From positions 26,515 through 90,514 of the forward strand of contig JACKFX010000004.1 of assembly GCA_020632255.1 (NCBI GenBank): a stretch of 64,000 nt of DNA, in the 5' to 3' direction. The notes under the pieces were generated by a model. It was given only the letters and a program-made list of their open reading frames with translations, was not told the origin of the DNA and ran no database searches. The position numbers were made by a program, and so were the translations under genes. This DNA comes from Pseudomonadales bacterium. Lineage in GTDB: Bacteria > Patescibacteriota > Microgenomatia > UBA1400 > PJMF01. This document shows, one piece after another, positions 12,383-20,591 of this stretch (position 1 is the stretch's first letter; each line of letters opens with the position of its first letter).

Positions 12383-12952
12383 ATGGCTGGACATAGTAAA
12401 TGGAACAATATCAAGAACCGAAAAGGGGCACAAGACGCAGCAAAAGGAAAAGTTTTTGGTGAAGTTGCCAAACTTATTCGCATTGCTGTGAAAGAAGGTG
12501 GTTCTGATGATCCAAAGTTTAATGCTGGTCTTCGTGTTGCTCTCGATAAAGCACGATCTGCCAATATGCCTAAAGAAAAAATCCAAAAAGCAATCGAACG
12601 TGGCATGGGCAAGTCATCCAGTGGTGCTTCAATTCAAGAAATTACCTATGAAGGTTTTGGCCCAGGGGGAGTAGCCATGATTGTAGTTGCTTTGACTGAC
12701 AACGTGAATCGAACTGCAGGAGATATGAAGTTCGCATTTTCTCGAAATAATGGCTCCATGGGTGGACCGGGAAGTGCAATGTATATGTTCCAACGCGCAC
12801 AAGATGGGGGTTATGAAGCTACCATGAAAATCGATGTAGAAGATAATGCAACTAAGTTGCAATTGCAAAAACTTGTCGATGCTATTCGTGAAATTGAAGA
12901 CGTCGAGGATGTGTACGTTGCCACAGATGGTATTGATGAAGACGAGAAGTAA
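12383..12952 (+). CDS. YebC/PmpR-family transcriptional regulator, short form
   Basis: MAGHSKWNNIKNRKGAQDAAKGKVF… is the hallmark YebC N-terminus. Confidence 0.85.
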   Translation: MAGHSKWNNIKNRKGAQDAAKGKVFGEVAKLIRIAVKEGGSDDPKFNAGLRVALDKARSANMPKEKIQKAIERGMGKSSSGASIQEITYEGFGPGGVAMIVVALTDNVNRTAGDMKFAFSRNNGSMGGPGSAMYMFQRAQDGGYEATMKIDVEDNATKLQLQKLVDAIREIEDVEDVYVATDGIDEDEK

Positions 12953-13771: not shown

Positions 13772-14045
13772 CTTCCTAGAGGGGAGTACACAGTGATTTT
13801 CTTACATTTTCATTTGCCTGGATTCCAGGCGGGAATTTTTGTTAGAGCAGAGGAGTTATCTAGAATTTCGGCCGGAGATAGAGGTGTGTTGAGGTCTTTG
13901 GGAGCATCAGCAAGTGGTGTGCTCGGGATTTGAGACAAATTTTTAGAAAAAAGTGTTGTTGGGAAAGAACGTACGATCAAAGCAAGAAAAGAAAAGGGAG
14001 AAGTGAGCAAAAAAATGTTTCAGTATGCCTGGTGGAACAGGGAAG

Positions 14046-14075
14046 TGATATAGTTTGATATAGTATGATATATAA
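14046..14075. repeat. Three tandem 10-bp iteron-like repeats: TGATATAGTT / TGATATAGTA / TGATATATAA
   Basis: Read directly from the sequence. The period is one helical turn. Confidence 0.6.
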
Positions 14076-14078
14076 ATA

Positions 14079-14141
14079 CGTGAAAACTGTGAAACTATAG
14101 GCCTAAATATGTGGAAAACTCAAAAACTATAGGACATATTC
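14079..14141. repeat. Two tandem imperfect direct repeats of about 31 bp. Consensus GTGRAAAACTnnRAAACTATAGGMC.
   Basis: …gtgaaaactgtgaaactataggcc… and …gtggaaaactcaaaaactataggac… lie side by side. Confidence 0.55.
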
Positions 14142-14154
14142 AGACATTTAATCA

Positions 14155-14172
14155 CCAGGCATATATGCCTGG
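14155..14172. repeat. Perfect 18-bp palindrome CCAGGCATATATGCCTGG
   Basis: Read directly. GC-rich arms with an AT-only centre. Candidate protein-binding or recombination site. Confidence 0.6.
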
Positions 14173-14223
14173 AGCATATTTTAATCATGCCTCAGAGCAG
14201 AACAAGTCTGTACAACGCGGAAA

Positions 14224-14664
14224 CTAAACGCTTAAACTTAGCCTGGACCACCTCTGGGGATGGAGGTGCCCGATGCAAGAATAAATAAAACCCGAAGCGG
14301 TGTTTTGGAGAGTGTCAAAATTGAGAGTCTTAGGGAGCCATCACTAGAGAGAGCGAGAGCGAGCTAAACGAGCTATTCATGATTATTTTCTATACTTTTT
14401 TTGTTAACTTTGTGACAGATGAGCGGCGGGAGAGAGAAAGCCCCCTCTTTTGCGAGGTGCCCATTCCCATAAATCTGTTATGTCGCACAATATAACTTTT
14501 ACGACATTAAACCAAGTAGTCACGAGACTGCTATTTCACACATCTATTTTTTATGGTTTTTATTTCTAGCCCCTAATCCTCTGATGTTTGTATGTTACTT
14601 TTTTTACTGCTTTTTTATCTTGTCTTGTCCCCCTATTTGTCCGACGCGGTTTTTAAGCGTTTAG
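14224..14664. repeat. 13-bp perfect inverted-repeat pair flanking about 415 bp. CTAAACGCTTAAA at 14224 and TTTAAGCGTTTAG at 14652, each preceded by ACGCGG.
   Basis: Read directly from the sequence. Confidence 0.55.
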
Positions 14665-14722
14665 TGAGATCGCTTCTTTTCTGAAGGCTGTATTGGTATG
14701 TGGGAAATATTGTGCGACATAA
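14477..14722. repeat. 16-bp perfect inverted-repeat pair flanking about 213 bp. TTATGTCGCACAATAT at 14477 and ATATTGTGCGACATAA at 14707.
   Basis: Read directly. The enclosed segment is strongly pyrimidine-rich on the plus strand. Confidence 0.6.
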
Positions 14723-15001
14723 AATTAGTTGTTTTTGGTTGATTGGAGTGGTGCAGTGGTTGTGCTGTCTGCGTGCGGCGGTAATACTGGGCCAACTGTG
14801 TGTGAATACGTTGCAAAAGAGGCTTCATACCAGGCTAAAAGCTATTTAAACGCCCAAAATCGGCTTTTTATTCTGCGACTGATTGATTGGTCATTGAAAG
14901 AGCGACACTTGTCACAATGTGAAGTCGAAATGAGCTACACGTATGCTTTTGTGTCGTAAAATATTGTAAAGTGCGAATGGGTACTGTATAGTGAATGTAC
15001 T

Positions 15002-15937
15002 ATGGCAATTCCCACACAACCGCAAGCATGTATGATTACCTTTTTGGAACATTTGGAAGTTGAACGAAATGTTTCTAAGTTAACGCTTCGTAACTATGGT
15101 CAGTATTTGCGTCGGTTGTCAGATTGGCTCAAAACCCATGACGTGAATGATATTCGTAAACTCAACCAGGATTTGGTGCGTGAGTACCGTGTGTACTTGT
15201 CTCGATATGAAGATGACTTAGGACGGACGCTTTCCAAGAAAACCCAGGGGTACTACATCATCGCTTTGCGTTCGATGCTCAAGTGGCTCGTCAAGAACGA
15301 TGTGCCAGTGTTGCATCCAGAAAAGATTGATTTACCCAAGGCGGAGTCGCAGCATATGAAGTTTTTAAACACAGAGAAGATCGAAAAACTCCTGGCGCAA
15401 CCGTTGTTATCCTCGAAAACGGGACTTCGAGACCGCGCTATACTCGAGGTGTTATTTTCAACTGGGTTACGTGTTAGTGAGTTGGTGTCACTCAATCGTG
15501 ACCAGATTGACATCAAGTCCCGTGAGTTTGGAGTGATTGGTAAAGGCCGCCGCCCTCGAGTAGTCTTTTTGAGTGATGGGGCAGCAGAGTGGTTGGATCG
15601 TTGGCTGGTTTCTCGAGATGATCAGTGGCGGCCTGTCTTTATTCGCTTTGCAGGCAAAAAGCCAGATATCACCGAGGATGGTGAGAACATGCGCCTAACT
15701 ACCAGAAGTGTGCAGAGAATTGTTGACAAGTATTGCCGCAAGGCTCACTTGCCTATCAAGATTAGTCCGCACGGCATTCGTCACAGCTTTGCAACTGATT
15801 TGCTTTCGAATGGAGCAGGGCTCCGAGATGTTCAGGAGATGTTGGGACATAAAAATATTTCGACCACGCAAATTTATACGCATGTGACTCGCCCACAGTT
15901 AAAAGAAACTCACAAGAAGCATCATACCGATTTATAG
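15002..15937 (+). CDS. Tyrosine site-specific recombinase, XerC/XerD family
   Basis: N-terminal SAM-like core-binding domain plus the catalytic R…K…HxxR…Y set (LFSTGLRVSEL…; HGIRHSFATDLL…GHKNISTTQIYTHV). Confidence 0.88.
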   Translation: MAIPTQPQACMITFLEHLEVERNVSKLTLRNYGQYLRRLSDWLKTHDVNDIRKLNQDLVREYRVYLSRYEDDLGRTLSKKTQGYYIIALRSMLKWLVKNDVPVLHPEKIDLPKAESQHMKFLNTEKIEKLLAQPLLSSKTGLRDRAILEVLFSTGLRVSELVSLNRDQIDIKSREFGVIGKGRRPRVVFLSDGAAEWLDRWLVSRDDQWRPVFIRFAGKKPDITEDGENMRLTTRSVQRIVDKYCRKAHLPIKISPHGIRHSFATDLLSNGAGLRDVQEMLGHKNISTTQIYTHVTRPQLKETHKKHHTDL

Positions 15938-16582: not shown

Positions 16583-17389
16583 TTATGGTTGTGTTGGAAA
16601 TTGAGCGACTTCTTCTTGGCGATGCTTCCAGAGTCGAGTAGCCAGTGCCCTCCCCTGCGGGGTGACGAAGTAAGAATCAAGATCGGTTTGAAGATTTTCG
16701 AGATAGGTTTGAGGGTTATTGATCCCTTTGCGATAGACGTCCTGCCAGAAGTTGAGTTGTGTAAATGACCACAAGTGATCAAGATCGACGAGGACCTGGA
16801 CCTCAAGCGGAACAGCTGTGCCCTCTTTGGCGACTTTTTCTGGTTGGTCATGATGGCGGATGGCCAGAAGAATCAGATCTTTCTGGGCCTCAGAAAGTGA
16901 AAAGCTCTTGCCGTAGGATTCGAGTAGTTCGGTTGCTAGTGCCACCCCTTCCACGGCATGTTTTTCTTTTGGACCGAGCGCGGTTGCGTTGAGTTTAAGA
17001 CCAGAAACGCCCAAGCTAGCGGCGACTTCTTTTTCGCTGAGTCGACTCCATCCACAGTCATGGAGAATCAGTGCCAGTGTGACCACTGTTTGGTCAATGG
17101 TACGGCCGGGATGAGCCGCTTCAACAGCGTAGCAGAGTGGTTGAATATATTGGCAACAATTGGCAGTGTGGACATCGGTTGTCCGCGCACTCAAATGTGG
17201 TAGTACCTTAGAAAAAAAAGTTTGAAATTTTTTGGGAACCAGCTGGAGAAATTTTTTTTGCCAAGGAATATACAGTAAAAAGTGGTGATCTTTTGCTGGT
17301 AACGAAGTCTCGGCTGGATACTCAAGAATGACAGATTGTGGGAGTGTGATTGAGGGATACTCAGTGAAGGTAAGAGTTTGAAATTGCAT
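16583..17389 (-). CDS. HD-domain phosphohydrolase. The tracked ORF (to 17680) runs through the tRNA, so the real start is MQFQTL at 17389.
   Basis: H…HD motifs (ILHDCGW, AIRHHDQPE). The upstream part of the tracked ORF simply translates the tRNA. Confidence 0.6.
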   Translation of the reverse strand: MQFQTLTFTEYPSITLPQSVILEYPAETSLPAKDHHFLLYIPWQKKFLQLVPKKFQTFFSKVLPHLSARTTDVHTANCCQYIQPLCYAVEAAHPGRTIDQTVVTLALILHDCGWSRLSEKEVAASLGVSGLKLNATALGPKEKHAVEGVALATELLESYGKSFSLSEAQKDLILLAIRHHDQPEKVAKEGTAVPLEVQVLVDLDHLWSFTQLNFWQDVYRKGINNPQTYLENLQTDLDSYFVTPQGRALATRLWKHRQEEVAQFPTQP

Positions 17390-17396
17390 GAGTATG

Positions 17397-17470
17397 TGGA
17401 CCTGAGGGGATTTGAACCCCTGACCTCCTGTATGCCATACAGGCGCGCTAGCCAACTGCGCCACAGGCCC
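17397..17470 (-). tRNA. tRNA-Ala (anticodon GGC)
   Basis: The reverse complement folds as a cloverleaf: GGGCCTGTGGCGCAGTTGGCTAGCGCGCCTGTATGGCATACAGGAGGTCAGGGGTTCAAATCCCCTCAGGTCCA. The G3:U70 alanine identity pair, the GGC anticodon in a 7-nt loop, and a TΨC arm GGTTCAAATCC are all present. Confidence 0.88.
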
Positions 17471-17774
17471 ATGTGTTTTTATTTTTAACATGACTATTAG
17501 TATACCATCCTTCTTGAAGAATTTATAGAGGTGTGTGGTTAAATAATGGTTATCGGACATTAGCAGACACTTTTTATGACTGCTAAAATTGGGTTGATGC
17601 TCTTTTTCTTGATACACCAGGTATAATTGCTGGTACTTACATGTGTAGCTGGTGTGTACACTGCACACGTGTTTCCTCAAGAAAAGTTATTTTCAGAGAA
17701 GCCATTGGCACAAGAGCACGTTTCATTTTTTTGGGGTAAAGGAACAAGAGAAAAGTGTGGAGGTAAAACAAGGA

Positions 17775-17825: not shown

Positions 17826-20591
17826 TTATTCCTCGTCTTCTCCTTCAACTTTTTTGAAGGTAAGTGCCACTGCGACGACTTCATCGGTCTTTTTGAGTCG
17901 CATGAGGATCACCCCTTGAGTTGGACGGGTTAGTACAGGAATTGATTTCTTGCTGAGCGGTAACTTAATGGTTTGCCCTTCTTTGGTGGTGATCACCACC
18001 TCTTTGTGCTCGGCAGAAATGACTTTGCGAGCACTTGCAACTTTACCGGTTTTGGTGGTAATTTCGGCAACTTTGACACCCATGCCAGAACGCTTTTGAA
18101 CTGGGTATTGGTCTAAGTTAGTACGCTTACCCATGCCGTTTTTGGTGATGAGCAGAAGTTGGCGCTCGGGAGCGTTCTTTTGAAGGTCTTCTGAGGCGCT
18201 GAGGACCTCAAAACCGACGACATAGTCTTCTTTCTTGAGTGTAATGCCTTTTACACCCTTGGTGTCACGGTTTGAGCTCTTAACTTCTGTTTCTGAGAAG
18301 CGGATTGACTTACCATCGTGAGTGATCAGCATAATCTCATCTTCACCCGCACTGAGGCGGCTTTGGACGAGACTGTCACCCTTGTTCAGTGTGATAGCGA
18401 TAATGCCATTCTGGCGAATGTTTTCATAGAGCTTAACGGCTGTTTTTTTAACCAGACCCTTTTGTGTAGCCAAACAGATGTATTTTTCAGCATCATTTTT
18501 TGGATCAACAACCAAAATTGATTGAACCACTTCATCGTGTTCAAGGTTAATAAGATTTACCATGGCGGTGCCTTTAGCCTGGCGGGAAGATTCTGGGATT
18601 TCGAAGCCACGGAGCTTGAAAACTTTGCCTTGGTTTGTGAAAACTAGTAAGTAGTCGTGAGTGTTAATCGTTAACAAGGTAGTGACCATGTCTTCTGCTT
18701 TCATCTTTACCCCCACGCTACCCTTGCCTCCGCGTGATTGGGTGCGGAAAGCAGCTGGGTTTAGGCGTTTGATGTAGCCAGATTCAGTCAGAGTGATAAC
18801 TGCTTCTTCATTTGGAACTAAGTCTTCTTCGCTGAACTCGCCGACCTTACCCTTGATGAGCTTGGTTTTACGCTCGTCTCCATAGAGGGTGATTAATTCG
18901 TCTGTTTCATCTTTAATAACCTTAAGAATGTTTGCAGGCTTTGAAAGCAAGGCAATGAGTTTTTCGAGAGTTTTCTTAACTTCGTCATATTCATCCTCAA
19001 TCTTTTTACGCTCAAGTGCAGCCAGGCGCTTAAGTTGCATATCCAAGATTGCAGTTGCCTGGACGTGTGAAAGGCCAAACTTGTTCATCAATGCTTCGCG
19101 GGCTGCATCGGTATCGGCTGAACGGCGAATGATCTCGATGACGTCATCGAGATTGCCAAGAGCAATGAGTAGGCCTTCTAAAATGTGAGCGCGATCTCGA
19201 GCTTGGATTAACTCTTGTTGGCTGCGGCGAACCACAATAAGTTGGCGGTGAGCGATGTACTCCATCAAGATTTGACGAATGTTTAAAAGTTGTGGGGTAC
19301 CCTCGCTAGTTAGTGCCACCATGTTCATTGAGAAGCTGGTTTGTAACTCCGAATACTTGAATAACTTGTTCAGGACAACTTTTGGTCGAGCATCGCGTTT
19401 GAGATCGATGGTGATTTGCATACCGTTACGGTCTGAGTCGTCATTAAGATCTCGAATGCCATTTACTTTTTTATCTCGAGCTAACTCAGCAATTTTTTGG
19501 AGTAAGCGAGCTTTGTTGACTTGGTATGGAATTTCGGTAACGACAATTTGGAAGCCACCTTTTTTCTTTTCTTCAATAGAAGCTTTTGAACGAATGATGA
19601 CTCGGCCCTTTCCAGTTTTATAGCCTTCTTTAATAGCGTTGAAATCATAAATTATACCGCCAGTTGGGAAGTCAGGCCCGTTGATGTACTCCATGATATC
19701 ATCGATGCTGCTGTCAGTTTGGAAGTTTCCGGCCATTACCCGAGGCTCGGTGGTCAAGAGTAGATCGATTTGTTGATGCATGGTCTTAATTTCATCGGCA
19801 GTGTTAGCGCCTTTTTTGCTTTGAGGTCGTTCTGGAAGTTCGAATGTTGCATCTGTTGGACGAGACGATGTCCCAGCGTCAATCATGGCGTTGATAGCAC
19901 TACAAACCTCTGTCAAGTTATGAGGAGGAATTTTGGTAGCCATACCCACCGCAATACCTTCGGCGCCCATCAGGAGTAAGTTTGGCAGTTTTGCAGGCAA
20001 AACGGCTGGCTCTTGGAGTGATCCATCAAAGTTATCAACGAATGGCACCGTGTTTTTATCGATGTCAGACAGCAATTCCTGAGAAATTTTCGCCATTCGA
20101 GCCTCGGTATAACGCATCGCAGCAGGGCTGTCGCCATCAACAGAACCAAAGTTACCCTGACCATCAATGAGTTCGTAGCGCATGCTAAAGTCTTGAGCCA
20201 AACGGACCAAGGCCATATACACAGAAGAATCACCATGTGGGTGGTACTTACCCAAGACGTCACCAACAATACGAGCAGACTTTTTATACGCACTTTTGTG
20301 GCTGATTCCACTCTTGTGCATCGAGTACAGAATGCGGCGGTGTACCGGCTTGAGTCCGTCACGGACGTCAGGTAGCGCACGAGAGACAATCACACTCATG
20401 GCGTAATCGAGATAACTCTTCTCCATCTCAGACTTAATTGAGATGTACTTGAGCTTTCCAAAGCGACTCTCTTCAATCGTTCCGATGAGAGATTCTGCTT
20501 CTGTCTTAAGAGTTTCTTCGGTAGCGGTCTCAGCAACACTGGTCACTGGTTCTTGCACTTCGTTTTCTGGGTTCTTGTTTTCTTCTGTCAT
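17826..20591 (-). CDS. gyrA: DNA gyrase subunit A
   Basis: The active-site Tyr region ([10 protein letters not shown]), the GyrA box and the C-terminal beta-pinwheel repeats are present. There is an apparent insertion of about 45 aa between …INAMIDAG and GPDFPTGG. Confidence 0.93.

Follow-up and report, generated by a model that had tools for sequence, protein, structure and literature searches.

What does the long gene-free region ahead of the gene for an Xer-family tyrosine recombinase (xer) do in the 64-kb stretch of contig JACKFX010000004.1 analysed here (Microgenomates, order UBA1400; hereafter the window)? Within this region the initial annotation had singled out three elements spanning about 130 bp, namely three tandem 10-bp units, two tandem units of about 31 bp and a perfect 18-bp palindrome, and had suggested that they form a dif-like or att site or an origin-like element, perhaps belonging to an integrated replicon. 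We find that the flagged 130 bp are the 5' end of a conserved non-coding module of ~450 bp, which lies between a DUF5656 membrane-protein gene and a dif-like Xer core, and that the flagged repeats sit 300–430 bp upstream of that core. Across Pacebacteria and other Microgenomates the motifs of this module recur in one order and in strict orientation, enriched and phased.

All three elements are present in the window as described, and Tandem Repeats Finder returns both arrays (period 10, 2.7 copies, score 47; period 32, 1.9 copies, score 87). The region itself runs from 13772 to 15001 (1230 bp) and is free of genes, as had been claimed; stops remain in all six frames under genetic codes 11 and 4, so that a gene hidden by an alternative genetic code was rejected. 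The end of the palindrome is 830 bp from the xer start codon at 15002, again as claimed, and the composite occurs once in the window, the flagged repeats forming a unique, non-dispersed locus. Perfect palindromes of at least 18 bp arose in 22 of 100 first-order Markov simulations of the 64-kb window. The palindrome is therefore unremarkable by itself, and the case for a function rests on comparison with relatives.

The comparison set comprised ~85 related loci, 65 of them ordered on the core, and included xer homologues (57–89% identical) from 80 genomes of Candidatus Pacebacteria and other Microgenomates (Patescibacteria, or candidate phyla radiation, CPR). The arrangement of a DUF5656 gene, a long gene-free region and xer is recurrent throughout the clade, the gap measuring ~0.9–2.7 kb in relatives whose nearest upstream open reading frame (ORF) is DUF5656. 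When the intergenic region was compared with the 80 loci by BLAST, an island of ~30 bp with 87–100% identity stood out at 14478–14507. It contains a 28-bp sequence with the 11+6+11 layout of a dif site, whose arms are inverted (9/11 symmetric) and nearly invariant while the centre varies (TATAAC, TATTAC, TAATAC, TATACA, TGTATC), and conserved arms around a variable centre are the known anatomy of dif (PMC2958812). Compared with the dif sequences of E. coli and B. subtilis, 15–17 of the 28 positions are identical. The core occurs once per ~10-kb locus in 65 of the 80, most absences being loci with short upstream flanks, and has no second match in the window even when 7 mismatches are allowed. 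To judge from these sequence features, 14480–14507 is a dif-like Xer site and a candidate recombination site.

The core lies ~360–3900 bp upstream of xer in the 65 loci, mostly ~500–1200 bp, and thus adjoins the recombinase gene; in some lineages a gene stands between the two. The encoded protein scores 241 bits against the NCBIfam model for XerC and 240 bits against that for XerD, both below the cut-offs, compared with 199 bits for XerA and ~45 for FimB/E-like proteins. Its best solved relative is E. coli XerD (1a0p, 4.6e-38), in an alignment of residues 11–304 that includes the C-terminal catalytic domain. The expectation that a dif-like site is kept beside xer is thus borne out by an intergenic core upstream of a single Xer, whereas the flagged array is not that site, the core lying ~300 bp further on. 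Nor do the flagged elements themselves resemble dif: the 10-bp and 31-bp units are direct repeats, and the palindrome has no spacer and is absent at this place in two relatives (L006 and L007). The papers found by full-text search did not describe a dif site, an Xer target or its control for Patescibacteria/CPR. In five relatives (L048, L050, L051, L052 and L055) the core is flipped relative to xer.

In 62 loci, motifs of the module were counted by strand over the 600 bp that precede the core; against a background of 475 kb of flanking sequence they are enriched 10–70-fold. The most conserved block consists of the first two 10-bp units, the third unit being specific to the window's lineage. 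This 15-mer, TGATATAGTTTGATA, has a median position of −416 from the core in 55 loci and is found 71 times on the plus strand and never on the minus strand, a ~70-fold enrichment. Each of the 31-bp units consists of a GTG box followed by an (A)CTATAGG box, and both kinds of box are enriched 15–22-fold upstream of the core. The TGTGGAWAA boxes TGTGGATAA and TGTGGAAAA have medians of −364 and −388 in 56 loci (GTG boxes: 73 on plus, 10 on minus, with strand changes in distant lineages), and the TATAGG box TTATAGGAC has a median of −368 (39 on plus, 26 on minus). Closer to the core come TGCAAGAAT (median −285; 19 on plus, 1 on minus) and AAAACCCGAA (median −193, 44 loci). The motif AAACCCGAA occurs 44 times on plus and not once on minus, with no plus-strand occurrence across the 475 kb of flanks, and in 57 of 67 sequences its distance to the core is 160–217 bp. 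The purine-rich AGGGAAGAG family is also oriented (55 on plus, 7 on minus). The distance from the promoter-like block TGATATAGTTTGATA to the core ranges over ~360–480 nt in Pacebacteria.

Spacing within the array follows the DNA helix. Consecutive GTG boxes are separated by 9–12 bp (20 cases), 21–22 bp (6) or 31–32 bp (3), so that 29 of 34 spacings correspond to one, two or three helical turns; in the window the spacing is 31 bp, and box spacings are multiples of ~10.5 bp. Between AAAACCCGAA and the core we detected no helical phasing (n × R² below 3). The CCAGGCTAA family of GCCTGG half-sites shows no strand preference in relatives (34 on plus, 36 on minus), and both this and the 39:26 ratio of the TATAGG box fit DNA-binding sites and not RNA motifs. 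L006 and L007 lack the palindrome at this place, and analogous palindromes occur in L011, L013, L030 and L032; by sequence the palindrome is a putative pairing, specific to the lineage, of GCCTGG-family half-sites. With its left half it also pairs with 14024–14034, as part of a perfect 11-nt inverted repeat (14024–14034 / 14153–14163). The intergenic region holds seven CCWGG sequences (5.7/kb, against 1.4/kb window-wide), all of the GCCTGG/CCAGGC form. A genome-wide clustering of CCWGG methylation sites was rejected, as the window count is 88 against 85 expected and the enrichment is limited to the intergenic region. The features of the region are collected in Table 1.

Table 1. Features of the intergenic region and xer in the 64-kb window
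Feature	Position	Strand	Remarks
Hairpin TTTGCCTGGATTCCAGGCGGG followed by a T run	13813–13833	+	Likely terminator of the DUF5656 gene; first GCCTGG/CCAGGC half-site pair
Purine-rich blocks GGGAGAAGTG and CAGGGAAG	13996–14005; 14038–14045	+	AGGGAAGAG family; bracket TATGCCTGGTG (14024–14034)
Three tandem 10-bp units TGATATAGTT / TGATATAGTA / TGATATATAA	14046–14075	+	First two form conserved block TGATATAGTTTGATA
Two units of ~31–32 bp, CGTGAAAACTGTGAAACTATAGG and TGTGGAAAACTCAAAAACTATAGG	14079–14101; 14110–14133	+	Operator-like; 31 bp apart
GTG boxes CGTGAAAA and TGTGGAAA	14079; 14110		The second is TTTTCCACA on the minus strand
Perfect 18-bp palindrome CCAGGCATATATGCCTGG	14155–14172	none	Two GCCTGG-family half-sites, 9+9, no spacer
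Further GCCTGG half-site CTTAGCCTGGAC	14236–14247	−	Reverse complement of CCAGGCTAA family
Conserved blocks TGCAAGAAT and AAAACCCGAA	14274–14282; 14287–14296	+	Strict orientation
Dif-like core ATGTCGCACAA-TATAAC-TTTTACGACAT, 11+6+11, 28 bp	14480–14507	+	Present in 65/80 loci
Inverted extra copy of the core's left arm and part of the spacer, ATATTGTGCGACAT	14705–14723	−	No second arm
Element of ~75 nt, TACCAGGCTAAAAGC...GCCCAAAATCGGCTTTTTATT...TGATTGATTGGTCATTGAAA, with small hairpin and T run	14828–14900	+	Not protein-coding
Degenerate inverted Xer-type site GTGTCGTAAAA-TATTGT(A)-AAGTGCGAATG	14951–14979	+	Element 14951–14992 (+); overlaps the xer promoter-like site
Promoter-like site of xer: TTGTAA, 17 nt, TATAGT	14964–14969; 14987–14992	+
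xer, 311-aa Xer-family tyrosine recombinase	15002–15937	+	Pfam Phage_integrase, 1.6e-41

The explanation that we favour, tentatively and short of calling it probable, is that the flagged array is a regulated promoter/operator-type DNA array firing towards the Xer core. The 10-bp units contain TGATATAGT, an extended −10 form (TGnTATAaT/TATAGT) of the kind found directly upstream of folD, rpsB, yebC, xer and other genes of the window. Elsewhere in the clade the 15-mer lies at most 80 nt before the xer ATG (L035, L038, L042 and L043), and in many other lineages it is found on the opposite strand 520–1350 bp beyond the core, directed back at it. Because of the −10 match and of these positions elsewhere, we read the units as tandem −10 elements and predict a promoter towards the core. 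The units would then be tandem copies of the lineage's extended −10 consensus, TGnTATAGT, directed at core and xer. Just downstream, the two 31-bp units with their GTG and TATAGG boxes would act as operator-type sites, set three helical turns apart so that a multimeric protein may bind them cooperatively. Several GCCTGG/CCAGGC half-site pairs, the palindrome among them, would serve a further DNA-binding protein, a dimer. Such an array would control transcription into the Xer core region, with recombination at 14480–14507. We infer that the promoter is active, as we infer which proteins bind and what the transcript is for.

Several observations weigh against this explanation. No −35 element precedes the 10-bp units, and a generic sigma-70 scan of the plus strand called no promoter there, because that element is lacking; the same scan placed promoter-like sites on the minus strand, at 14093→14065 and 14123→14094. 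A terminator directly ahead of the core was found in 9 of 65 loci, with a background of 6%; it is not a conserved feature, and thus no defined transcript can be drawn, while in several lineages extra copies of the 15-mer lie within the supposed transcript. The blocks TGCAAGAAT and AAAACCCGAA are left unexplained by a promoter/operator model, and DnaA and MraZ cannot be told apart by sequence as candidates for the protein that would bind the GTG boxes.

Both candidates arise from the boxes themselves. In 31 loci the box TGTGGATAA matches a DnaA box perfectly, and in 25 the box TGTGGAAAA does so with one mismatch. Searched against a metagenome collection, the pattern of the 31-bp unit gave 120 matches, of which 24 were copies of the module, with the core 280–480 bp downstream, and 17 were the 5' ends of mraZ genes, in which the 11-mer TGTGGAWAACT lies directly at the start codon, preceded by tandem GTGG(A/G)nAA boxes at ~10-bp spacing (L091, L096, L097, L100, L101, L103, L108, L109, L111, L153, L156, L166, L175, L178, L188, L190 and L204). 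MraZ recognises serial direct repeats in the promoter of its own gene, which in Mollicutes read AAAGTG[T/G] (PMC8475190), and the arrays upstream of mraZ in these contigs are presumably MraZ operators with a consensus that mimics DnaA boxes. The boxes upstream of mraZ in the 17 contigs resemble DnaA boxes without a mismatch, as in GTGGGGAAATGTGGATAAAGGTG...CTGTGGATAACT, and the last of them is at the ATG of MFIGEY.... As far as their sequence goes, the TGTGGAWAA boxes of the window appear equally DnaA-box-like and MraZ-box-like. Set against an MraZ operator of at least three direct GTG-type repeats with a ~10-bp period, they agree in box sequence and phasing, with just 1–3 boxes per locus.

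Two of the alternatives place the function of the array elsewhere than in DNA-level control of transcription. The blocks could be parts of an unstructured RNA of ~400 nt, or of a long xer 5' leader, acting at the RNA level, for which the strict plus orientation of several of them (71:0, 44:0, 19:1), the promoter-like element at the upstream end and the limited range of lengths (~360–480 nt) between that element and the core in Pacebacteria would speak. We consider this doubtful. Searches of Rfam gave no family, whether the gathering threshold or a limit of E = 10 was applied, bar one spurious match, and ARAGORN found only a tRNA-Ala; folding energies on both strands were those of shuffles (z-scores −0.37, −0.16 and +0.76); the RNAalifold consensus for two subclades was weak, at −25 and −10 kcal/mol over ~450 columns, with a covariation term of −1.4 at most; and the AAAACCCGAA block forms no conserved hairpin (mean z −0.45). 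A structured RNA was rejected on these grounds, as was a resemblance of AAAACCCGAA to ribonuclease P RNA or transfer-messenger RNA that we had considered and that neither Rfam nor ARAGORN supported. The lack of a conserved terminator, the presence of TATAGG and GCCTGG motifs on either strand and the strand changes of the GTG boxes in distant lineages also tell against an RNA. The literal first reading, in which the repeats and the palindrome are themselves a dif or att site or the relic of an integrated plasmid or phage origin, draws on the tyrosine recombinase gene close by and on the dyad symmetry of the palindrome, and we regard it as very improbable. The 11+6+11 site at 14480–14507 is a far better candidate and is conserved in 65 loci, which the palindrome is not. 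An integrated replicon is also contradicted by the lack of a rep gene in the window, of any match in PLSDB or a phage collection and of the core pattern in IMG/VR, and by flanks made up of housekeeping genes in conserved order. ORFs inserted between core and xer in relatives were considered as mobile elements exploiting Xer, a proposal rejected since they are ordinary genes of the AP_endonuc_2, LytR_C, PMT and GNAT families.

Whether the locus lies at a replication origin or terminus, as had been suggested, can be judged from strand asymmetry. GC skew is positive across all 64 kb (whole-window value 0.078), and its replication component, after gene orientation is separated, is +0.16 to the left and +0.064 to the right (+0.28 and +0.14 for GC skew at third codon positions, GC3). 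In 45 related genomes, with the sign referred to the xer strand, mean GC3 skew is +0.237 upstream (positive in 45) and +0.218 downstream (positive in 44); the genes downstream are nearly all on the opposite strand from xer, yet the GC3 skew there is positive. Strand biases of k-mers also correlate across the locus (r = 0.45–0.65). A switch in polarity like that of FtsK-orienting polar sequences (KOPS) was considered and rejected, the flipping k-mers (AGGGGA, GGGGAG) looking like ribosome-binding-site sequences and gene orientation also switching at the locus. As the sign of the skew does not change across the locus, in the window or in 44–45 of 45 relatives, the locus is by skew neither an origin nor a terminus, and the sign change at the core that marks a dif terminus is not seen. 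The proposed origin-like element finds no more support, with a single intergenic TTWTNCACA (8 in the whole window against 8.6 expected), no dnaA or dnaN in the 64 kb and no skew minimum.

The interpretation of these signs depends on the genomes concerned. Kadnikov et al. 2020 reported monotonic cumulative GC skew in three Microgenomates genomes of the order UBA1400 (Ch65, Collierbacteria and Beckwithbacteria), and proposed either an adjacent origin and terminus or unidirectional replication (PMC7143001); in such genomes a sign change is therefore expected nowhere. CP011212 is described as having a typical skew with two extremes (PMC7143001), and it carries the whole module (locus L039) with GC3 skews of +0.175 and +0.385 on its two sides. 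In L056, L065, L064, L045 and L078 the GC3 skew is very strong and of the same sign on both sides (0.35–0.70), which recalls the extreme strand G/C disparity of Ch65, Collierbacteria and Beckwithbacteria (PMC7143001). On contigs of at least 850 kb the xer locus is ~13–14% of the length from one end (3/3): at 735–746 of 853 kb in CP011212, at 145–156 of 1174 kb in L012 (BOKR01000001) and at 925–936 of 1082 kb in L013 (JACKFW010000001). If these three records start at dnaA, the module would be ~110–160 kb from that gene.

A position inside the replichore can be accommodated if the module consists of accessory sequences of the Xer site, as in cer and psi, with the ~450-bp flank binding host proteins that wrap the DNA. 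The resulting topological filter would let a single Xer resolve dimers without FtsK, and the site would not need to be at the terminus. The module is one-sided and strictly oriented, and AAAACCCGAA keeps its distance of 160–217 bp to the core even where, in distant lineages, the other blocks are missing; its boxes are helically phased as for a multimeric protein; the core inside the replichore in 44–45 of 45 genomes is hard to reconcile with FtsK/KOPS-guided resolution; and there is a precedent in archaeal dif sites, which have conserved flanks and at which XerA acts without partners (PMC2958812). We nevertheless hold this, the main rival to the promoter/operator array, to be unlikely, if worth serious attention, as AAAACCCGAA is not helically phased with the core, the flagged boxes are 350–430 bp from it (twice the accessory span of cer and psi), a gene separates core from xer in some lineages and no accessory protein of these organisms is known. 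An adjacent origin and terminus, an arrangement proposed for monotonic-skew Microgenomates (PMC7143001), would on the other hand give exactly such a skew of one sign to left and right. The 10-bp repeats would then serve for unwinding and the TGTGGAWAA boxes as DnaA boxes, adjoining dif, and in Microgenomates a single fork fired towards core and xer would run the full circle of the chromosome and end beside its own start. We give little credence to such an origin or origin–terminus junction. The perfect DnaA boxes in 31 loci, the one-mismatch boxes in 25 and the AT-rich tandem repeats beside them fit it, but the intergenic region has only one TTWTNCACA and those of relatives 0–3 GTG boxes each, which match the presumed MraZ operators equally well; neither dnaA nor dnaN lies within −14/+50 kb; the window skew of 0.078 compares with ~0.33 for Ch65, computed from the strand G and C contents in PMC7143001; and for CP011212, with its typical skew and its module inside a replichore, it is contradicted, while for the monotonic-skew lineages it keeps a small probability. 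Were it true, the junction would supply the locus so far lacking for the monotonic GC skew of UBA1400 genomes and for the unidirectional theta replication proposed for them (PMC7143001), and dimer resolution would take place next to the origin.

The segment between core and xer carries further traces of Xer-type sites. A perfect 16-nt inverted repeat links the extra copy at 14705–14723, whose inverted left arm lies at 14709–14720, with 14478–14493, and extra half-sites between core and xer are found in many relatives, often <100 bp from the ATG. Xer may bind the degenerate site at 14951–14979 and so repress its own gene. The ~75-nt element is conserved 200–440 bp beyond the core, forward in the window, L006, L007, L030, L035, L039 and L044 and reversed in 16 loci. 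It is bracketed by an imperfect 19-bp inverted repeat (14705–14723 / 14946–14966) that is Xer-arm-like. In the window's subclade the extra half-site precedes the element and is inverted, as expected if the segment was inverted during evolution, and relative to most of the relatives compared (L010–L054) the segment is inverted in this subclade. An active invertible switch was rejected: the promoter block TGATATAGTTTGATA is never inverted (71:0), and three public, independent assemblies whose intergenic region is identical to that of the window (L001, L002 and L003) have it in one and the same orientation and thus give no sign of active switching. A small ORF at 14729–14959, at 76 amino acids the longest of the region, has a lipobox-like N-terminus and is called as a 67-amino-acid gene in public assemblies; it was rejected as a gene as its homologs carry stops and the nucleotide block alone is conserved.

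The remainder of the window is ordinary core chromosome (rpsB, tsf, tgt, yebC, gyrA, gyrB, holB, pilus genes, recG, aminoacyl-tRNA synthetases, a penicillin-binding protein and enolase), and the neighbours of the locus are housekeeping genes in the same order across the clade. Neither dnaA, dnaN, ftsK nor a rep gene was found among its annotated ORFs (−14/+50 kb around the locus). The YebC/TACO1-family ORF (12383–12952, plus strand) has only 189 amino acids, its second Pfam domain matching at profile positions 2–55 of 160; the identical 189-amino-acid gene call in the three independent assemblies indicates a truncated or split protein and not a sequencing error. GyrA (17826–20591, minus strand, 921 amino acids) matches the DNA_topoisoIV domain in two stretches, which points to a possible insertion, and its coding sequence holds a perfect 22-bp palindrome, ATCTCGATGACGTCATCGAGAT, at 19132–19153. 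A tRNA-Ala(GGC) gene (17396–17470, minus strand) lies inside a mechanically called ORF of 365 amino acids (16583–17680, minus strand), whose start is probably over-called, given the tRNA within it and a sole Pfam match (HD domain) at residues 194–303. Relative to xer this tRNA gene is on the minus strand in L006, L007 and L021 and on the plus strand in 11 other scanned loci, implying another local inversion downstream of xer.

We rate the locus as an Xer/dif module that has a long conserved flank and lies apart from the skew switch. Like cer of ColE1 and psi of pSC101, it has an Xer core flanked on one side by a long, oriented stretch of conserved non-coding DNA with predicted sites for multimeric proteins, in a terminus-independent position. 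Both cer and psi use ~180 bp of accessory DNA; the flank here is ~450 bp, and unlike them the module is chromosomal and conserved class-wide, has no recognisable PepA, ArgR or ArcA sites and shows no phasing with the core. With XerS/difSL of Streptococcus and Lactococcus and XerH/difH of Helicobacter and Campylobacter it shares a single Xer, here equally close to XerC and XerD, and a near-palindromic core with conserved arms and a variable centre beside the recombinase gene. Those systems are located at the replication terminus (PMC2958812 for XerS), whereas no skew switch is seen here in 44–45 of 45 genomes, and in contrast to the 31 bp of difSL the core has 28 bp, as in classical dif, together with the one-sided flank. 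Archaeal XerA/dif likewise pairs a single Xer with a near-perfect inverted-repeat 11+6+11 site and conserved flanks, and in Crenarchaeota dif is close to xerA (PMC2958812). Archaeal and bacterial dif sites are identical at 14–18 of 28 positions (PMC2958812), comparable to the 15–17 found for the core here. The present system differs in its bacterial host, in an Xer nearer to XerD/XerC (~241 bits) than to XerA (199) and in a longer, motif-richer flank.

The array also has counterparts outside Xer biology. It resembles the MraZ operator (Pmra of the dcw, division and cell wall, cluster) in its direct GTG repeats of ~10-bp period directly downstream of a predicted promoter and in the shared 11-mer, and departs from it in that no mraZ or dcw genes are nearby and that the 1–3 boxes per locus are paired with TATAGG boxes. 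DnaA-box clusters (oriC; datA and DARS of E. coli; those of B. subtilis) similarly have phased DnaA boxes at a fixed place with AT-rich repeats alongside; here the boxes are too few, and skew minimum and nearby dnaA are lacking. A likeness to fimS-type invertible promoters lies in the tyrosine recombinase gene beside a promoter-bearing segment bracketed by inverted repeats (14024–14034 / 14153–14163 and 14705–14723 / 14946–14966) and in the two orientations of the ~75-nt element among lineages, and is offset by a promoter block that is never inverted and by an Xer that scores ~241 bits, against ~45 for FimB/E.

The comparison thus provides a 28-bp candidate Xer site with a clade-wide consensus that can be tested, and the annotation of promoters and Xer sites in these poorly annotated genomes would be well served by TGATATAGTTTGATA and the core as markers. 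In monotonic-skew Microgenomates the module is a natural first place to seek an origin/terminus junction. A core inside the replichore, beside ~450 bp of motif-dense, oriented DNA, departs from the textbook model of a dif site at the terminus and FtsK/KOPS-guided resolution. Should the flank prove to be an accessory or regulatory array, read perhaps by DnaA or by a division regulator such as MraZ, it would show ultra-small bacteria coupling dimer resolution to the cell cycle.

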